Positions 1 to 5,907 of a stretch of DNA of 5,907 nt are shown one piece after another. Location: IMG/VR virus record IMGVR_UViG_3300045988_012538, positions 1 through 5,907 of that record; one strand, written 5' to 3'. Position numbers and translations under genes: made by a program. Every line of letters starts with the position of its first letter. Positions within the stretch are counted from its first letter, which is position 1. Below the pieces are notes generated by a model that was not told the origin of the DNA, searched no databases, and saw only the letters and a program-made list of their open reading frames with translations. The stretch comes from a virus.

Positions 1-119
1 ATTTTTTTTGTAACGTATCCTGCAACATATCTATATGTTTCTGGCACTGCTTGTGCTATTTGTATTTGACCCATGCCCCATAGTTTTTCCAGCCATTTAC
101 TTGTGTAGTATCCGTTGTG
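1..119. repeat. Terminal direct repeat, copy 1. Overlap from linearising a circular genome; identical to 5789-5907.
   Basis: Base-by-base comparison: attttttttgtaacgtatcctgcaacat...gtgtagtatccgttgtg occurs at 1-119 and again at 5789-5907 with an offset of 5788. The Rep reading frame runs in phase through the junction. Confidence 0.97.
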
Positions 120-662
120 TTGTATCTTGTATAGGTGTTCCAGGTCTGTTGGTTGCCATCCGTACAATATCATGTGATAGTGTGGTCTTGCTGTTTGTTC
201 TCCGTATTCCCCTGCTACAAAATAGCGTAATTTGCCCCTATAAGCCTTCCTGAGACGTTTTAAGAACTTTTGAATGTCGGGATACAGTAATGTTTGGACG
301 CTTTCAGGGCGCTTCTCTCCCGGTTTCCAGACGTATTGTACTTTTCGCATGATTTCGCCTGTGTTTACTATCATGCCTGGTACATGGTCATCATCATAGG
401 TTAGTGTGATAAACCAAACTTCTTCTTTTGGATAGTCTCGTGCTTCTAATTCTATTCGTGTTGTCCAATCCTCCCTTTGTCTGATTCTGCATCCGATGCA
501 CTGTCCGCATGGTATTAGCATGATATCTTTTCTAAACATTAAATCTTCATATTTTAGCTGTTTTCCCGCTAACTGAGAATAGCGGGAGAGTGTATACACC
601 CTCCCGCTAATTTCTTTGTCGTTCGGGTTGTACAGCCTAATTAATGGCTTGTAACAACTCAC
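1..662 (-). CDS. VP4: Replication initiator VP4 (HUH rolling-circle endonuclease), N-terminal part. It continues through the circular junction into 5788..5431, for 339 aa in total if it starts at GTG 662.
   Basis: My translation of the minus strand: (GTG)SCYKPLIRLYNPNDKEISGRVYTLSRYSQLAGKQLKYEDLMFRKDIMLIPCGQCIGCRIRQREDW...VWFITLTYDD...RPHYHMILYG...WGMGQIQIAQAVPETYRYVAGYVTKK. HUH motif HYH is at 182..174. The paired catalytic tyrosines YVAGY are at 29..15. The frame is open from 671 downward, with no ATG upstream of 539. GGAGGT lies 11 nt upstream of the GTG. The ORF is absent from the track because it has no stop inside this end of the window. Confidence 0.9.
   Translation of the reverse strand, partial: MSCYKPLIRLYNPNDKEISGRVYTLSRYSQLAGKQLKYEDLMFRKDIMLIPCGQCIGCRIRQREDWTTRIELEARDYPKEEVWFITLTYDDDHVPGMIVNTGEIMRKVQYVWKPGEKRPESVQTLLYPDIQKFLKRLRKAYRGKLRYFVAGEYGEQTARPHYHMILYGWQPTDLEHLYKIQHNGYYTSKWLEKLWGMGQIQIAQAVPETYRYVAGYVTKK
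564..610. repeat. Nucleotide-level repeat and inverted-repeat cluster inside the Rep 5' coding region.
   Basis: TCCCGCTAA occurs at 564-572 and 602-610. Its complement TAGCGGGA lies between them at 580-587. The 10-nt palindrome GTGTATACAC is at 590-599. The two direct copies fall in different codon phases of Rep. Confidence 0.8.
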
Positions 663-1495
663 TTTTTGATTTCACCTCCGCCGCCGCCATGCTCTGTTCC
701 GCTTTTGCTCTTGTGCGTTTTGCTTTGCGATTTTGTTGCTTTTTCTATTGCTTTTCCGGTATCGCTTCCGATGTTTGTTAAAGCCTTTGCTAATCCATAA
801 GGCGTCATTTGCGTACTACTGAGCATCTGTTGCCAGCTTTGTGATGCGTTGTACCAGTCGCTTTTACTCCAGCTATTGCTTTCGTATGCGTTCGGTACAA
901 ATCCACCGCTTCTGCTTACTCCTAGTGCGCTACTGCTTGCAAGTCCCATGCTTGCTCCACTAATTGTTCCTGCTGAACCGCCTGGTGTGCTTGCTCCACC
1001 GTTTGCAAAGGCTAGAATTGGATTCAGTCCAGCTTTTTTCATATCTTCAACGGCTCTTTGATATGCTGTATTGCTCATGTGCTCTTGCCATTCGCGGTTT
1101 GCTAGTGCTTCTGCACTGTTGTAGTTCATTGCTACGCTGTTTTCAATGTGGTTGTATACGCCTTGCATGATTGCTTGTAAGGTGTTGTAACCCATCTGTT
1201 TTAACATGCTTTGACTGTTGTATTTGCCTTGCATGGCCGCTTCTTGCCCTTGGTATGCATATGCCTGTTTAAGCCAGTCGTTTACCTGTTGAACGTTTGT
1301 TCCTGAATGACTTCCGCTTTCTGAATGACCGCCGCCTTCGCTTGTACTGCCTCCGCTACTTTGGCTGTTACCGGTTTGACCCCATCCGCCGAATATTCCA
1401 GCAACGTCTTTTGCCGCTCCGGCGACTGTTCCGATTGTATTTGCTACGTTTCCCGCTACGTTTAAGCCGGTTAAAATTCCTGATAATACACTCAT
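659..1495 (-). CDS. VP2: DNA pilot / minor capsid protein VP2.
   Basis: 278 aa with an ATG start. It has a Gly/Ser-rich N-terminal third and the conserved microvirus VP2 core REWQEHMSNTAYQRAVEDMKKAGLNPILAF. It sits immediately after VP1, as in gokushoviruses. Confidence 0.9.
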   Translation of the reverse strand: MSVLSGILTGLNVAGNVANTIGTVAGAAKDVAGIFGGWGQTGNSQSSGGSTSEGGGHSESGSHSGTNVQQVNDWLKQAYAYQGQEAAMQGKYNSQSMLKQMGYNTLQAIMQGVYNHIENSVAMNYNSAEALANREWQEHMSNTAYQRAVEDMKKAGLNPILAFANGGASTPGGSAGTISGASMGLASSSALGVSRSGGFVPNAYESNSWSKSDWYNASQSWQQMLSSTQMTPYGLAKALTNIGSDTGKAIEKATKSQSKTHKSKSGTEHGGGGGEIKK

Positions 1496-1497
1496 TT

Positions 1498-1523
1498 AAA
1501 AATAGCCCGGATTTCTCCGGGCT
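1498..1523 (-). terminator. Hairpin plus T-run between VP1 and VP2; candidate intrinsic terminator or attenuator.
   Basis: Minus strand reads TAA GAAAGGAGGA AGCCCGGA-GAAA-TCCGGGCT ATTTTTAA ATG. This is a perfect 8-bp GC-rich stem (1504-1511 / 1516-1523) with a GAAA loop, followed by ATTTTT, in the sense orientation of the operon. Confidence 0.6.
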
Positions 1524-1533
1524 TCCTCCTTTC

Positions 1534-3207
1534 TTACAGTTTGTACAAGCCTGGCACACTGTACAATGGCATCCGTCTCGTGGTTTTGTTCGTTACTCGG
1601 ATTGCGCCGAAAAACTGCGGCTCATTCTGTACGATGAGTGTACGCGCAATTTCTTCTTTTCCTTCTGCCATCCAGCTTTGCGACAGTGTTGGTACGGCTG
1701 AATAGTAGTCGGCATAATGCCAAAAGTCCAGTGTTCCTGTTGCGTTGCTTCTCATCAGACCGCTTACTCGGTTTGGTTTCATTCTGTAGTCTGCCCAGGC
1801 TTCTTGGTATCCGAATGTATCTTCATCTGATGCTGCGCCGGTGAGCATGATTTCTTTCTTTTTTACAGGCTGCTCTCCTACGTTTGCGAACTGTGGTACA
1901 TAATAGTCCAGTCTGTCCGTTCTGCTCCAGAATCGTTCCAAGCCTTGCTGGTAACTGTGATTGTGTCGTACGCAACATACTCCGATTATAAAGCCGTGTT
2001 CTTCAAAGCTCTTTGTGAAGGAACTTTCATTGATTGGCGTTACTGACATTGCGCCAGTTTCACCGATAGGTGTGTCTGTATTGCTCTGCTGTCCGCTTGT
2101 CTGCACGATTTGGTTCATATTGACATGGTATCTGCCACCGCCAAGGTATTCCGGGATTTGTACAGTTTTATCCGAGATTACAACGTCCCACAGTGCTTGT
2201 ACCTGTTCGCGGTATCTGCTGCCGCCTCGTGCAAGTGCTTCGTAGTACTGCTGTACTGCTACCGCTTTTCTTAGGTCGTTGATGGTTGCTGCTGTTACAC
2301 TGCTGAGGTCTGCGCCTAGGTATACTACGCTATGGTCTGTGTTTGTTCCGTCTCCGATGTTTAAGTATGCTGACCCTGTGCTTCCATCTTCTGCGATTGC
2401 ATACAGTCTGTTTTTGACGTTGTCCGGGTTTGTGCTTCCGTCAAAAAAGCTGTTTGCATATAGAAGTGTCTTTTCTTCAAATTTATCATTTGTGAATCCG
2501 CTTATTTTTGCATTGCCCTGCATCGGCAGTGTCACTTCCGGGCCGCGCTGAGGGTACGGCAAACAGCTGGTAAAGTAGTCGTGGAATTTGTTTACAGGTA
2601 AGCATCTTCCTCCCTTTATTGCTTCCAGCAGTGTTCTTTCTATTTCATCATTGCTTGTGTCGAGGTATGTCACGTCCTCATCACCTGTTTTAATTACTGC
2701 CGCATTATCAACGTTTTCATCTCTGAAAAATTCGTTCCAAATTTTCACATATCCTCTGATGGGTAATGCGTTGACCTCGAATTTCCCTTTAATTTTTGTC
2801 GGTACTCCCATGTAGTCCAGGATTGAATTTTCGTATGGTAGTGCAGCTTGATTCGTACCCATTATTTTAATTTTGGGTACTTTGTATTCCTTTGTTGGCA
2901 TCCATGGCGTGTCTTCTACTTCTCCCATGAACTGTTTGAAATTATCCCATAAGATGCGATTCGGACAATAGAAGTAGTAGAAGTCGATAAATGCGTCGTC
3001 CATCACCGGATACTTTGGCGTGGTCATTCTGATGATTGCTGCCGTGTCCACGCTGAAGGTATCGCCCGGTAATACCTCATCAACATAGAATGGAATCAGT
3101 TTGCCGGAATCGAACGTTGTGAGAATATTCTGGTCGCGGTTGAACCGTGTCCTACTTGCTTTCATTTCCGGAATCTGGTTAAAGTGTCTTTCATTGTTTC
3201 GATTCAC
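1534..3207 (-). CDS. VP1: Major capsid protein VP1 (phiX174 F-like capsid family).
   Basis: 557 aa. The N-terminus HFNQIPEMKASRTRFNRDQNILTTFDSGKLIPFYVDEVLPGDTF is the hallmark microvirus capsid N-terminal block. The start codon is GTG at 3207..3205, with AAGGAGG 7 nt upstream. The first ATG (M15) would remove conserved residues. Confidence 0.95.
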   Translation of the reverse strand: MNRNNERHFNQIPEMKASRTRFNRDQNILTTFDSGKLIPFYVDEVLPGDTFSVDTAAIIRMTTPKYPVMDDAFIDFYYFYCPNRILWDNFKQFMGEVEDTPWMPTKEYKVPKIKIMGTNQAALPYENSILDYMGVPTKIKGKFEVNALPIRGYVKIWNEFFRDENVDNAAVIKTGDEDVTYLDTSNDEIERTLLEAIKGGRCLPVNKFHDYFTSCLPYPQRGPEVTLPMQGNAKISGFTNDKFEEKTLLYANSFFDGSTNPDNVKNRLYAIAEDGSTGSAYLNIGDGTNTDHSVVYLGADLSSVTAATINDLRKAVAVQQYYEALARGGSRYREQVQALWDVVISDKTVQIPEYLGGGRYHVNMNQIVQTSGQQSNTDTPIGETGAMSVTPINESSFTKSFEEHGFIIGVCCVRHNHSYQQGLERFWSRTDRLDYYVPQFANVGEQPVKKKEIMLTGAASDEDTFGYQEAWADYRMKPNRVSGLMRSNATGTLDFWHYADYYSAVPTLSQSWMAEGKEEIARTLIVQNEPQFFGAIRVTNKTTRRMPLYSVPGLYKL

Positions 3208-3602
3208 TTTTCTTCCTCCTTCACTTCAGATTCTTTTGTCGGTTCTTCCTTTGCCATTTTTTGAAGTTCTTTAAGCTTCATGGCGTTTGCCTGTGCGGTC
3301 GCTACCATGCGGTGATACTCGTGAATATTCTGCGGAAATTCGGTGATATCTACTTCTGTTCCGTTTAGTGCTCCTTCGGACAGACTTTTCAGAAACTGCG
3401 GGTCAAAACTTGCTTTCCGGACAATGTTTTTGATGTCGCATTCTTCCGCATAGCTTTCGATTTCCTGCTGTATGTCGATTGGTTCAGTTTCTTGTAACTT
3501 TTCTTTGCCTTTCTCGTCTTTTGTCCAGACGTATTGTTTTCGCATTTTTTCGCCCGGTTCAGAAAAGAAGGGCTTTCGCCCTTCTTCGTATCGTTTATTC
3601 AT
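3204..3602 (-). CDS. VP3: Internal scaffolding protein VP3.
   Basis: 132 aa, acidic and helical, located directly upstream of VP1. The segment GTEVDITEFPQNIHEYHRMVATAQANAMKLKE resembles the D-I/T-x-x-P ... A-x-N block I recall from gokushovirus VP3. GGGAGGG lies 8 nt upstream of the ATG. Confidence 0.72.
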   Translation of the reverse strand: MNKRYEEGRKPFFSEPGEKMRKQYVWTKDEKGKEKLQETEPIDIQQEIESYAEECDIKNIVRKASFDPQFLKSLSEGALNGTEVDITEFPQNIHEYHRMVATAQANAMKLKELQKMAKEEPTKESEVKEEEK

Positions 3603-3834
3603 GCGGCTTGCCCTCCCAGACCTTTTCGGTGTCGTTCGTGAATGTGCCGATTTCGTCTTCGAATACTGCCAATTTGAAGCCGGTATAGTCGCCCGGCTCC
3701 TGTCCGATAAAGGTTTTTTCGTCCTTTGCCATTACATTGCACATACGTGCAAAGGTTGCGTTGTTTTTGTTTTCGCCTACCCATGCATAGCACTTTGCTA
3801 CGTTGTCCCAGACGCCATAGTAGTTGTGTTTCAT
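3595..3834 (-). CDS. Conserved small microvirus non-structural protein (VP5-like), 79 aa.
   Basis: MKHNYYGVWDNVAKCYAWVGENKNNATFARMCNVMAKDEKTFIGQEPGDYTGFKLAVFEDEIGTF... fits the pattern Y-x-V-x-D ... N-x-x-x-A-x-R-x-F ... P-x-DY-x-L ... G-x-FD-x-x-x-G, which I recall from small gokushovirus proteins. ATG 3834 is preceded by AAAAGGAGAAAAAACA. The track's longer form starts at a GTG (3870) and would overlap the basic ORF 3851..3973. Confidence 0.65.
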   Translation of the reverse strand: MKHNYYGVWDNVAKCYAWVGENKNNATFARMCNVMAKDEKTFIGQEPGDYTGFKLAVFEDEIGTFTNDTEKVWEGKPHE

Positions 3835-3850
3835 TGTTTTTTCTCCTTTT

Positions 3851-3973
3851 TTACAGCCGGATGCCACCACGCATAGGTTTCTGGCTGAGGTTGATGTTTT
3901 TGGTTTTGCGTGCGGTTACGTTAAACATACGGCGGTCTTTTGCGCCGTTCATGGTTTTACGATGCCGTGCCAT
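3851..3973 (-). CDS. Small highly basic DNA-binding / packaging protein (phiX174 J-like, gokushovirus ORF8-like), 40 aa.
   Basis: My translation: MARHRKTMNGAKDRRMFNVTARKTKNINLSQKPMRGGIRL*. It has an Arg/Lys-rich N-terminus and the C-terminal MRGGIRL typical of these proteins. AGGGAG lies 8 nt upstream of ATG 3973. The stop TAA is followed 16 nt later by the next gene's ATG. It is below the 60-aa track cutoff. Confidence 0.72.
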   Translation of the reverse strand: MARHRKTMNGAKDRRMFNVTARKTKNINLSQKPMRGGIRL

Positions 3974-4184
3974 TGTTATACTCCCTTCTCATCAGTTCCA
4001 GTTCTATAGCGTTTGCAAATCTCTTCATTTGCCAAATTTCTTCTATCAGTCTTTTTGCATCTTCGATCTTTGACATTTTTCTAAGCATTTTGTAATTGCT
4101 ATCGATTTCTTTGTATTTTCGTGTGAGCAGTTCTTTTAGTGCTTCTTCGGTCTGGTCTCTTACGTTCCATGTTTTGTTCATCAT
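3957..4184 (-). CDS. Hypothetical helical protein, 75 aa.
   Basis: MMNKTWNVRDQTEEALKELLTRKYKEIDSNYKMLRKMSKIEDAKRLIEEIWQMKRFANAIELELMRREYNNGTAS. AAGGAG lies 7 nt upstream of ATG 4184. The track's 95-aa version starts at a TTG (4244) with no SD. I recognise no family. Confidence 0.55.
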   Translation of the reverse strand: MMNKTWNVRDQTEEALKELLTRKYKEIDSNYKMLRKMSKIEDAKRLIEEIWQMKRFANAIELELMRREYNNGTAS

Positions 4185-4188
4185 GGTT

Positions 4189-4311
4189 TTACTCCTTTTC
4201 CTTTTCGTTGATGCTATCATGCAGTGCGTGATAGATTTCGTCAAGCTTTTCCAGAATATCCATCATCAGCCGGATTGCCTGCTTGACGTCTTTAATGGAA
4301 ATCAGTGCCAT
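4189..4311 (-). CDS. Hypothetical small acidic protein, 40 aa.
   Basis: MALISIKDVKQAIRLMMDILEKLDEIYHALHDSINEKEKE*. AAAGGGGGT lies 5 nt upstream of ATG 4311. It fills the gap between the peptidase stop (4313) and the next ATG (4184) exactly. It is below the track cutoff and I recognise no family. Confidence 0.45.
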   Translation of the reverse strand: MALISIKDVKQAIRLMMDILEKLDEIYHALHDSINEKEKE

Positions 4312-4312
4312 T

Positions 4313-4702
4313 TTATACCCCCTTTCTGTATTTGCTGGTTCTCACGTCTAAGTGTACCCAACTTTTGTATACGATAATGCCGCATTCATTCGGTGTGATT
4401 TTATTCAGTTCGTTGGCAATTTCTTTTGCGCTCATTCCATTTACTCGAATGTCTGCAGCCATACCGCACATATGGTAACTGTATCTTGCTCCCCCGCATT
4501 TCTTGTTCCACTCTGGTGTTCTGTATCCGCTGGTGATGATGACAGGTTTTTCTGTTTTGTTTCTGAGAATGTCTAAGATTGATACGAGGTGTTCGTCTAT
4601 AAATACTACTTGAGAGCCGTCTTTACATGCAAATTCTTTTACTTTAAAGTGCTGTCCTACTTTTTCGTTTGCGTCTCTTGCCATGAAATAGCTTTTAATC
4701 AT
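4313..4702 (-). CDS. Peptidase M15 family zinc D,D-/L,D-peptidase (cell-wall hydrolase, putative endolysin), 129 aa.
   Basis: The sequence SGYRTPEWNKKCGGARYSYHMCGMAADIRVNG ... WVHLDVR matches the M15A/VanY-like signature: SGYR..N..GG..S.H-x6-D, plus a second HxD. The track start at 4711 is a TTG. ATG 4702 has GAAGG about 9 nt upstream and overlaps the upstream stop as ATGATTAA. Confidence 0.85.
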   Translation of the reverse strand: MIKSYFMARDANEKVGQHFKVKEFACKDGSQVVFIDEHLVSILDILRNKTEKPVIITSGYRTPEWNKKCGGARYSYHMCGMAADIRVNGMSAKEIANELNKITPNECGIIVYKSWVHLDVRTSKYRKGV

Positions 4703-4877
4703 TTTCGTCAACCTTCTTTACTTCCGTTATTTCGTATCTGTCAAGCCCGTGCCCCGTTTCGTCGATTAACCGTTGTACAGTAACGTTTCTTGCGTCTACA
4801 GGGTCAATCGCGACAACCATATAGCAATCGTGGATTTTTTCAGTGTTATTGTATACGTACACGTTGTATCTCTTCAT
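4695..4877 (-). CDS. Hypothetical protein, 60 aa; first gene downstream of the large intergenic region.
   Basis: MKRYNVYVYNNTEKIHDCYMVVAIDPVDARNVTVQRLIDETGHGLDRYEITEVKKVDEND. It has an ATG start with GAAAGGA 12 nt upstream. Its stop overlaps the peptidase start. I recognise no family. Confidence 0.55.
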   Translation of the reverse strand: MKRYNVYVYNNTEKIHDCYMVVAIDPVDARNVTVQRLIDETGHGLDRYEITEVKKVDEND

Positions 4878-4908
4878 GGCATTGCACCATCCTTTCCCCT
4901 TCTATTTT

Positions 4909-4920
4909 ATTATATGTCAA
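4909..4920 (-). promoter_or_regulatory. Candidate sigma70/sigmaA-type promoter element for the gene string.
   Basis: Minus strand reads TTGACATATAAT. A consensus -10 TATAAT (4914..4909) directly abuts a consensus TTGACA (4920..4915), about 32 nt upstream of ATG 4877. The two hexamers are not at canonical 17-bp spacing, so only one can act in a given promoter. Confidence 0.35.
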
Positions 4921-5061
4921 TAGCTTTTAAAAGGGTTTTTGCGTTTTGTAATAATTTTGTAACCAGCCTGTACTCCTTTGTTTTGAATGGCGCTTTAGCG
5001 CCTTGCCGTATGGAGCGCAGCGGAATTCGGCTGAATCCGTTCCTTTTTAGCGCTGTGCGCG

Positions 5062-5228
5062 TTTTCAACACTTTTAACACTTTCAACAGGTTTTCCACAA
5101 AATGTTGCACAAATGTTTTCGTCATTTTGACGGACTTTCAACATTTCAACAAATTTTCAACAAAACTTTCAACAGTATTTTTCGCTTTTTTCCTACGTTT
5201 TAGCGTTAAATTTTAGTACTTTTCAACT
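5062..5228. repeat. Array of same-orientation TTTCAACA 9-mers; iteron-like, resembling DnaA boxes.
   Basis: Copies: TTTTCAACA 5062, CTTTTAACA 5071, CTTTCAACA 5080, TTTTCCACA 5091, CTTTCAACA 5135, ATTTCAACA 5143, TTTTCAACA 5154, CTTTCAACA 5166, TTTTCAACT 5220. Spacings within each cluster are 8-12 nt. Confidence 0.85.
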
Positions 5229-5271
5229 TTTTCACTATCTCTACTACTACTCCTACAACAAGTTAATATTA

Positions 5272-5318
5272 TATCGCGCGTGCGCGCGTGCGCGCTATCG
5301 CGCGTGTGCGCACGTGCG
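5272..5318. repeat. GC-rich, strictly alternating pyrimidine-purine (CG/TG) tract forming an imperfect 20-bp inverted repeat.
   Basis: Sequence: TAT-CGCGCGTGCGCGCGTGCGCGC-TAT-CGCGCGTGTGCGCACGTGCG. The alternating runs are 5275-5295 (21 nt) and 5299-5318 (20 nt). The 11-nt direct repeat TATCGCGCGTG occurs at 5272 and 5296. Arms 5275-5294 and 5299-5318 pair as 16 Watson-Crick plus 4 G-T on the + strand. Confidence 0.9.
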
Positions 5319-5324
5319 AATTAG

Positions 5325-5358
5325 CTTACTTGATAGACTGGATAGACTGAATAGGCTG
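5325..5358. repeat. CTTACTTGATAG 12-mer (copy 1) leading into three tandem 9-mers.
   Basis: GATAGACTG is at 5332-5340, GATAGACTG at 5341-5349 and AATAGGCTG at 5350-5358. The 12-mer CTTACTTGATAG at 5325-5336 recurs exactly at 5398-5409. Confidence 0.9.
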
Positions 5359-5382
5359 ATACATGGAGCCTTTAGACGACAA

Positions 5383-5425
5383 TCACCTAGCCCAGTTCTT
5401 ACTTGATAGGTACTGGGCTAGGTGA
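5383..5425. repeat. Perfect 14-bp inverted repeat with a 15-nt loop; candidate origin stem-loop and/or Rep 3' structure.
   Basis: TCACCTAGCCCAGT (5383-5396) and ACTGGGCTAGGTGA (5412-5425) are exact reverse complements. The loop TCTTACTTGATAGGT carries copy 2 of the 12-mer. The structure lies 5 nt from the Rep stop codon (5431-5433). Confidence 0.85.
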
Positions 5426-5430
5426 CACCG

Positions 5431-5907
5431 TTAAAGTGTCCCCCTCTTCTTCATCTGCTTCTTTATCACTCTTTCTTTTGTCTTGCATTGTTCTGCAAAG
5501 TCTGTGTTTTCATACTTTAGCCTGTTTTCTGCGATTGCTGCTGCTTGTCTGTTCTGTTTAATTCTCCACAATCTTTGTGGGTTTTCTGCTTCCATCATTT
5601 TTTCATAATAACGTGGAATTTGTGCGTGTTTGCCGTTTGTGCATTGGATGTATCCTTGTCTCCAGATTTCTGCTTTGTGTTCTTGATAGTAGTGGTCTCC
5701 TAAGCCTGGCTTAAGGCTCATACATGCGAAAGGCTTTGTTTGCCCTAGTTCGTAGTATATGTTTGCTTTTTGGCCGTCAATTTCGTACATTTTTTTTGTA
5801 ACGTATCCTGCAACATATCTATATGTTTCTGGCACTGCTTGTGCTATTTGTATTTGACCCATGCCCCATAGTTTTTCCAGCCATTTACTTGTGTAGTATC
5901 CGTTGTG
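5431..5907 (-). CDS. VP4: Replication initiator VP4, C-terminal part. It is 5'-truncated by the window end, and 5789-5907 duplicates 1-119.
   Basis: The track ORF 5431..5862 (MGQIQIAQAVPETYRYVAGYVTKKMYEIDG...) is in frame with the 1..662 segment: 662 + 358 nt = 1020 nt = 340 codons. YVAGYVTKK is the superfamily I Rep two-tyrosine motif, comparable to phiX174 protein A. Confidence 0.93.
   Translation of the reverse strand, partial: HNGYYTSKWLEKLWGMGQIQIAQAVPETYRYVAGYVTKKMYEIDGQKANIYYELGQTKPFACMSLKPGLGDHYYQEHKAEIWRQGYIQCTNGKHAQIPRYYEKMMEAENPQRLWRIKQNRQAAAIAENRLKYENTDFAEQCKTKERVIKKQMKKRGTL
5789..5907. repeat. Terminal direct repeat, copy 2; identical to 1-119.
   Basis: Same comparison as copy 1. 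It implies a circular unit of 5,788 nt. Confidence 0.97.

Follow-up and report, generated by a model that had tools for sequence, protein, structure and literature searches.

A fixed M15-type peptidase without a sense-strand membrane protein in a lineage of gut gokushoviruses

We analysed a 5,907-nucleotide (nt) stretch of viral DNA (IMG/VR record IMGVR_UViG_3300045988_012538, positions 1 to 5,907; hereafter the window) comprising a gokushovirus-type microvirus genome, whose minus-strand gene at 4313..4702 is predicted to encode an intact zinc peptidase of the M15A type. The peptidase is fixed in this gokushovirus lineage and clearly under purifying selection, and it occurs in genomes that show no membrane protein on the sense strand. 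Judging from the comparisons presented below, it is probably the muralytic lysis enzyme of the virus, with a route to the cell wall that would be independent of a holin. The gene itself is not new, its family having been known in gut gokushoviruses since 2012, and the remaining value of this case lies in the testable question of lysis without a holin. Gokushoviruses rank with the commonest phages in the mammalian gut, and no lysis mechanism has been established for them; a fixed and selected peptidase that is never accompanied by a membrane protein hence poses a sharp question, viz., how a cytoplasmic wall hydrolase acts without a holin, the answer to which could reveal either a holin-independent release route or a lysis enzyme that degrades wall precursors. 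The missing export step is not addressed in the cited literature on these peptidases.

A predicted zinc peptidase of the M15A type

The gene codes for 129 amino acids (aa) followed by a TAA stop, and its product is comprised of a single Peptidase_M15_3 domain (MEROPS M15A). The open reading frame (ORF) as such extends on the minus strand over 4313-4711, giving 132 aa when read from a TTG and 129 aa from the ATG at 4702. The latter is the start kept in relatives, its methionine (M1) is invariant in an alignment of 29 microviral sequences, and a Shine-Dalgarno-like GAAGG motif (4712..4716, minus strand) can be read from the sequence 9 nt upstream of it. There is no in-frame upstream extension beyond these 3 codons, and the ATG overlaps the stop codon of the preceding ORF60 (ATGATTAA). 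A preliminary description of this DNA, made from the sequence without database searches, had recognized an M15 peptidase in this gene, and profile searches bear it out: the protein matches the full domain of Pfam PF08291 (Peptidase_M15_3; E=2e-23, 83 bits against a cut-off of 23.2 bits, profile positions 2-108 of 108) and PHROG 894, annotated as 'endolysin' (E=1e-39), with a weaker Pfam match to PF05951 (Peptidase_M15_2; E=1.6e-7). A more specific assignment as a MepK equivalog was rejected, the NCBIfam match being sub-threshold (42 bits versus 185).

The two motifs previously quoted as the zinc-ligand signature, namely H77-x6-D84 in SYHMCGMAAD and the HLD of WVHLDVR (H117 and D119), are present as described. 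Along with R61, they supply the catalytic candidates of the peptidase (R61, H77, D84, H117, and D119), all five of which are invariant both in the 29 microviral sequences and in a 41-sequence alignment that includes the approximately 45%-identical homologs of the Faecalibacterium-phage type. HMMER also aligns the peptidase with the Zn DD-peptidase of Streptomyces albus (1LBU), which we regard as the type enzyme of MEROPS M15A; R61, H77, and D84 are matched there by R138, H154, and D161, and of these H154 and D161 are Zn ligands. 1LBU is the only solved structure detected by sequence (E=0.0025 with the single sequence, 5e-8 with a profile). The family assignment and the motifs are far beyond chance, and the prediction that the gene encodes an intact M15A-type zinc peptidase is thereby confirmed at the sequence level.

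Structure prediction points in the same direction. A first AlphaFold2 model, built from close relatives only, had a predicted local distance difference test score (pLDDT) of 72.5 and yielded weak Foldseek matches; a more diverse alignment improved it to a mean pLDDT of 79.5, with values >85 across most of residues 21-120. When this model was compared with the PDB by Foldseek, the best 20 matches proved without exception to be M15/LAS or Hedgehog-type folds, including VanY, 1LBU, VanXYc, the Sonic hedgehog N-domain (ShhN), and ChiX. The template-modelling scores (TM-scores) are modest at 0.4-0.56, and 1LBU is matched with a probability of 1.00 and a root-mean-square deviation of 3.3 A over 90 columns. 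The model thus supports a fold of the Hedgehog/DD-peptidase type. The N-terminus of the protein (MIKSYFMARDANEKVGQHFK) is polar, and its highest Kyte-Doolittle mean over any 19 residues (KD19) is 0.93, in keeping with the earlier statement that an N-terminal hydrophobic segment is lacking; the hydrophobicity scan found neither a signal peptide nor a signal-anchor-release (SAR) segment in the peptidase.

Fixation and purifying selection

The preliminary description had regarded M15 peptidases as sporadic in microviruses and classical microviruses as too small to afford an endolysin, and both views understate the situation. In IMG/VR, 242 contigs contain a relative of the peptidase; among the best 80 of these, the peptidases are 72-92% identical and nearly all the contigs are microvirus genomes of 5.5-6 kb. 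A large protein collection holds 1,289 homologous clusters at 90% identity (E<=1e-5), the best 120 of which are at least 77% identical and, but for one on a 29-kb contig, derive from contigs of about 6 kb or less. A few close relatives of the peptidase are found on contigs of 8-29 kb, which may be concatemers, chimeric assemblies, or integrated copies. When relatives were picked by the capsid protein VP1 instead of the peptidase, 77 of the 80 nearest proved to carry the peptidase gene, including all 42 verified-circular genomes, the three without it being incomplete contigs. GenBank MG945200 was considered as a natural peptidase-less close relative and set aside as the record is only partial.

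Synonymous sites in the peptidase gene vary freely, with a normalised entropy of 0.3-0.7, and in codons 21-30 and 71-80 a residue conservation of 98-99% goes together with a normalised synonymous entropy of about 0.6. Local synonymous dips occur at codons 91-110 and 121-129, the latter at the ribosome-binding site of the next gene, ORF40. The gene is hence fixed in this gokushovirus lineage and clearly under purifying selection, which indicates that it is no sporadic passenger.

Homologs in Clostridia and a recombining accessory module

Among representative bacterial genomes, the closest homologs do not exceed 50% identity and nearly all come from Clostridia, namely Lachnospiraceae, Faecalibacterium, Oscillospiraceae, and Lacrimispora. 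At the 46 loci recovered there, no similarity to VP1, VP2, or Rep was found that would mark a microvirus prophage. In a second gokushovirus clade, Rep and VP1 are only 36-47% identical to those of the window, whereas identity reaches 72-80% for the peptidase and 71-90% for ORF40. At the nucleotide level, the two clades resemble each other only in a non-coding element, the peptidase gene, ORF40, and sometimes a 75-aa ORF, apart from a few short patches of 33-81 nt in VP1; the region of element, peptidase, and ORF40 reaches 71-96% nucleotide identity. These three components form a recombining accessory module, in agreement with published evidence that distantly related microviruses recombine in a region of about 700 nt that includes a peptidase gene (Kirchberger et al., 2022; PMC9239249).

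An ancestor of the lineage probably acquired the gene from a tailed phage infecting Clostridia-type bacteria, in which it belonged to the lysis cassette; it has since been fixed in the lineage and exchanged between microvirus backbones within the accessory module. The lysis role that we favour follows from the homology to endolysins adjoining holin-like genes. The peptidase would be made in the cytoplasm late in infection and would cut stem-peptide bonds of the sacculus, allowing the progeny to escape, and the membrane step would have to be holin-independent. Candidate routes across the membrane include a primary gokushovirus lysis factor, active also in relatives without the peptidase, whose work the peptidase would complete; a membrane lesion caused by newly made pilot protein VP2; or a host pathway.

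The search for a membrane partner

Several results weigh against this lysis reading and concern chiefly the missing membrane step. We scanned 49 related, verified-circular, peptidase-carrying genomes (that of the window included) for sense-strand ORFs of at least 25 aa, in three frames, taking a KD19 of at least 1.6 as the threshold for a transmembrane (TM) segment; none of 1,378 ORFs passed it, which extends from one genome to 49 the earlier impression that the sense strand encodes no membrane protein or holin. With start codons ignored, the sense frames of the 49 genomes contain only 6 stop-free hydrophobic windows, none of them in the present genome. The peptidase lacks a signal or SAR segment of its own, and the genome encodes no route to the substrate. 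Moreover, six complete gokushovirus genomes that have ORF40 and no peptidase likewise encode no TM protein, which implies that another lysis mechanism must exist in the group; the peptidase may therefore be auxiliary to that mechanism. Such recurrence as the hydrophobic windows show is limited to two cases, one in three clade-B genomes and another in three clade-A genomes.

The same scan does detect small TM ORFs near homologs elsewhere. They lie within 1.5 kb of the homolog at 25 of 29 bacterial-genome loci, and two cultured tailed phages have a TM ORF directly behind the endolysin gene, which codes for 131 aa with two TM segments in Faecalibacterium phage FP_Toutatis and for 74 aa with a single one in Vibrio phage K435. 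Of the components of a canonical holin-endolysin cassette, the virus thus has a predicted muralytic enzyme devoid of a secretion signal, and the small membrane protein (holin or pinholin) alongside it is absent from the sense strand of all 49 genomes. Base composition bears on this result: hydrophobic codons are disfavoured on a sense strand with 38% A and 18.5% T. Among sense-strand segments, the Gly/Ala-rich N-terminus of VP2 consistently ranks as the most hydrophobic across the clade (KD19 1.0-1.56, below the threshold); in the window it spans residues 3-21 (1433..1489, minus strand; KD19 = 1.19). This is the sole conserved membrane-active candidate in the genome, and we can only infer a lysis role for it.

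As for the proposal that the genome has no amurin, its membrane-protein part stands, there being no small overprinted TM ORF of the phiX174 E type in any sense frame of the genome. However, the lack of TM segments alone does not exclude a soluble amurin, of which A2 of Q-beta is an example. Gokushoviruses have been reported to be without a peptidoglycan-synthesis inhibitor of the phiX174 type (PMC7062461).

A different situation was observed in Dulem viruses 178 and 195, T-rich microviruses with a peptidase about 50% identical to the one studied here. In both, the gene that immediately follows the peptidase contains an overprinted hydrophobic ORF of 30-35 aa (MQFVxPRLxLWLPLW...; 4520-4627 in Dulem virus 178, 4584-4676 in Dulem virus 195), and the latter has in addition a 42-aa hydrophobic ORF inside the peptidase gene (4306-4434). 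Such ORFs could represent holin- or amurin-like genes embedded in others, or simply by-products of T-richness.

Alternative explanations

The absence of a visible partner could be deceptive if a membrane protein were hidden in the genome, be it the N-terminus of VP2 acting from inside, an antisense ORF, or a peptide of <25 aa, so that the system would amount to a disguised holin-endolysin pair. We consider this unlikely, though it has several points in its favour. The VP2 N-terminus is, as noted above, the most hydrophobic sense segment of the clade, and pilot proteins, such as H of phiX174, are built to span envelopes; nevertheless, it stays below the TM threshold in every genome. On the antisense strand, 1,207 of the 2,774 ORFs in the 49 genomes pass the threshold, an abundance that results from the T-richness of that strand, the hydrophobicity being what the base composition predicts. 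No antisense frame is consistently open across the peptidase gene, the longest stop-free stretches ranging from 28 to 131 codons with breaks that differ between genomes, and synonymous variation in the gene is not broadly suppressed; an antisense-strand holin finds no support in these data. The known microvirus genes all lie on one strand. A complementary-strand ORF beside a microviral peptidase has been reported, in favour of a hidden partner, but it was itself termed 'highly unusual' (Roux et al., 2012; PMC3394797). A further parallel is the microvirus Ebor, which encodes a predicted 45-aa membrane protein as well as a peptidoglycan hydrolase, Gp7, verified by zymogram (PMC11980548).

Somewhat less probable still is that the peptidase never leaves the cytoplasm and acts there as an enzymatic amurin, destroying the peptidoglycan precursors (UDP-MurNAc-pentapeptide, lipid I/II) by cutting their D-Ala-D-Ala end or another stem-peptide bond; the cell, starved of cross-linkable units, would burst as it grows. 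The peptidase would then be a new kind of one-gene lysis protein, independent of a holin whether it degrades precursors or gains the wall in some other manner, and, if true, this would explain an endolysin-type enzyme without a sense-frame membrane protein in an abundant gut lineage. It agrees with the absence of an export signal and of membrane proteins in the 49 genomes, as also with the deposition of 1LBU, the sole PDB relative detected by sequence, as a 'muramoyl-pentapeptide carboxypeptidase'. The best structural neighbors, VanY and VanXYc, are D,D-pentapeptidases/dipeptidases of vancomycin resistance, which act on precursors, but the likeness to VanY is at the superfamily level only (TM-score 0.4-0.5, 20% identity). 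Moreover, small phages are well known to lyse their hosts with a single gene whose product blocks wall synthesis (Roux et al., 2012; PMC3394797). On the other hand, tailed-phage homologs of the same length and architecture adjoin holin-like genes and are annotated as endolysins, no sequence feature separates the peptidase from them, and LysPM1 attacks the wall from the exterior after permeabilisation of the outer membrane (PMC13461873).

A function at entry is more doubtful than either of these. Here, the peptidase would sit in or on the virion and open a local hole in the wall at DNA delivery, which would matter most with a thick-walled, Clostridia-type host. The clostridial provenance of the closest homologs would fit, as would the Gram-positive hosts on which earlier authors speculated (Roux et al., 2012; PMC3394797), and Gp7 of Ebor has been detected in purified virions, albeit in trace amounts only, which also tells against the idea (PMC11980548). 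However, the protein is a stand-alone 129-aa domain, with nothing beyond the catalytic core, encoded in the accessory region between Rep and VP5 rather than among the structural genes, and this is not the organization of a virion-associated hydrolase. Its movement between backbones whose capsids are about 40% identical is hard to square with a specific capsid interaction, and gokushoviruses that share ORF40 do without it. Finally, the notion that the gene is a horizontally acquired passenger without a current role, or an annotation artefact, finds a foothold in the recombining nature of the accessory region, but it is effectively refuted by the fixation of the gene in the lineage, the invariant catalytic residues, the purifying selection, and the recovery of the same genome in three independent assemblies. 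The tight limit on genome size in a T=1 virus argues against it as well.

Neighboring ORFs

The preliminary description had listed three small ORFs around the peptidase gene, all of which exist where it placed them, and suggested them as potential export partners, a role that the comparative data speak against in each case. ORF40 (4189..4311, minus strand) codes for a 40-aa acidic, amphipathic helix, with only 1 nt separating its start from the stop codon of the peptidase gene. That it is a real gene is shown by its being intact in 49 of 49 genomes with a product of 34-41 aa, an ATG start, and a strong AGAAAGGGGGT or AAAGGAGGTG ribosome-binding site. Its core is MALISIKDVKQAIxxMMxILEKLDEIYHAL, within an overall size range of 34-47 aa, and three gokushovirus clades have it although their capsid proteins share only 40-50% identity. 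In the second clade it lies 150-420 nt from the peptidase gene and is not adjacent to it. We rejected it as a peptidase partner given its acidic, soluble, amphipathic character, its occurrence in the six peptidase-less genomes, and its non-adjacent position in that clade. It is a backbone gene rather than a peptidase-specific one, and is a candidate, among few that are conserved, for a gokushovirus lysis or regulatory factor.

ORF60 (4695..4877, minus strand), just upstream of the peptidase gene, codes for a 60-aa acidic, soluble protein with a weak match to PHROG 23663 (function unknown). It is absent from all 48 other clade genomes compared and was seen only in two further assemblies of the same genome. 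Its slot is hypervariable in the relatives, being occupied by at least five unrelated families of soluble ORFs of 50-77 aa or by nothing, and ORF60 was accordingly rejected as a peptidase partner. The slot is bounded by the non-coding element and the peptidase gene, and one of the families occurring in it is a zinc-ribbon protein; an MK.Y...(strand)...AK..A...(strand) pattern is common to several of the families, which may represent a single fast-evolving fold.

The third ORF (3957..4184, minus strand; 75 aa, or 95 aa from an upstream TTG) encodes a charged, helical protein without a TM segment. It is present in 33 of the 49 peptidase-carrying genomes and missing from 16, and its position relative to ORF40 varies. 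Beyond it lies a very basic 40-aa ORF (3851..3973, minus strand; pI 12, MARHRK...MRGGIRL) that resembles J/ORF8-type DNA-binding proteins and is conserved in relatives, including those without the peptidase. It was missing from the preliminary list and is often unannotated in the GenBank relatives.

Genome organization and the non-coding region

The window ends in an exact direct repeat of 119 nt, bases 1-119 being identical to 5789..5907; this terminal redundancy is an assembly overlap, which makes the window a complete circular genome of 5,788 nt. All its genes are on the minus strand, in the order Rep, a non-coding region of 550 nt, ORF60, the M15 peptidase, ORF40, the 75-aa ORF, the 40-aa basic J-like ORF, VP5, VP3, VP1, and VP2, with Rep (339 aa) spanning the junction from 662 through position 1 and on to 5431. 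The one-stranded set of VP1 (Phage_F), the VP2 pilot protein, VP3 (Chlamy_scaf), VP4 (Rep), and VP5 is of the Gokushovirinae type, for which a circle of about 4.5-6 kb is expected, and the nearest GenBank relatives are classified as Gokushovirinae. The genome is 76-85% identical in nucleotide sequence to KT264791, KX513868, and MG945447, from human and pig faeces.

Most genes are preceded at 6-10 nt by a purine-rich Shine-Dalgarno motif (GGAGG, AAGGAG, or GGGGG), VP2 being without one. This fits a host that uses such motifs, e.g., one of the Firmicutes, and speaks against Bacteroidota. Together with the affinity of the peptidase to endolysins of Clostridia phages, these strong sites bear on the host range of gut gokushoviruses; no microvirus is so far known to have a monoderm host.

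The non-coding control region of about 550 nt (4878..5430, minus strand), between the Rep stop and the accessory slot, is rich in repeats. It comprises a hairpin with 19-nt arms immediately behind the stop codon of Rep (5383-5425), a (GCGCGCAC)n tract in which purines and pyrimidines alternate with a period of 8 (5264-5319) and after which TATAAT occurs, 9-nt repeats of the CAGTCTATC type, a GGCGCTAAAGCGCC hairpin, and seven exact copies of GTTGAAA on one strand within 5063-5227, where about 1.2 are expected and none of 200 shuffles reaches seven. Parts of the region retain 74-96% nucleotide identity in a clade with a Rep of only about 37% identity, and the region is a candidate origin, iteron, or promoter region. 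A potential gene in it, 'ORF71' (4910-5125, minus strand; 71 aa), was rejected, as relatives read the same DNA in three frames, in truncated form, or without an ORF; its interpretation as a cationic amphipathic membrane-active peptide was likewise dismissed, as it lies within the non-coding repeats and hairpins. An Rfam scan of the window gave no match, and a promoter and terminator scan of it was uninformative.

Comparison with known systems

At the level of the domain, the SGYR and H-x6-D motifs of the peptidase align with those of 1LBU at an identity of only about 23%; 1LBU is a secreted protein of 213 aa with an extra N-terminal domain, and the viral enzyme lacks these features. With phiX174 protein E and other amurins, the virus shares the problem that a very small genome must lyse its host. 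E solves it as a small overprinted membrane protein that is not an enzyme, and the present genome has no such sense-frame ORF. Gp7 of Ebor (Tainavirinae), which we liken to the peptidase by its description, is likewise a microvirus peptidoglycan hydrolase in an accessory position, but Ebor belongs to another subfamily, has Rhodobacter as its host, and differs from this clade in the predicted membrane protein. Marine Occultatumvirinae isolates likewise carry M15 peptidases, and peptidases are listed among the lysis-associated accessory genes of microviruses (Kirchberger et al., 2022; PMC9239249).

The M15_3 endolysins of tailed phages (FP_Toutatis, K435, LysPM1, and ST79) have the same domain, a length of 115-137 aa, and no signal peptide. 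The peptidase is 45-46% identical to the annotated endolysins of FP_Toutatis and Vibrio phages and shares the invariant R, H..D, and H.D with them. LysPM1, from a Proteus phage, is a single-domain M15_3 endolysin of 116 aa that is Zn-dependent and muralytic by experiment (PMC13461873). These tailed-phage enzymes work in a lysis cassette: the endolysin of Burkholderia phage ST79 is reported to be accompanied by a holin, LysB, and LysC (PMC5025407), and FP_Toutatis and K435 have the adjacent TM ORF, whereas the microvirus has none.

The closest counterparts are the M15_3 peptidases of gut microviruses, reported from five human-gut Gokushovirinae and six Alpavirinae, for which horizontal acquisition and an endolysin role were proposed, their closest homologs being located beside holin genes in Faecalibacterium prausnitzii (Roux et al., 2012; PMC3394797). 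The family, virus group, and habitat are the same, the peptidases are 62-78% identical, and the affinity to Faecalibacterium and other Clostridia as well as the proposed endolysin role likewise agree. GenBank examples, some already annotated as 'peptidase M15', include the 'Human gut gokushovirus' records KX513868, KX513876, and KX513877, along with pig-faeces Microviridae (MG945xxx). Nothing essential differs between these and the system described here; the lack of a membrane protein was not analysed in that earlier set, to which the present genome adds ORF60.

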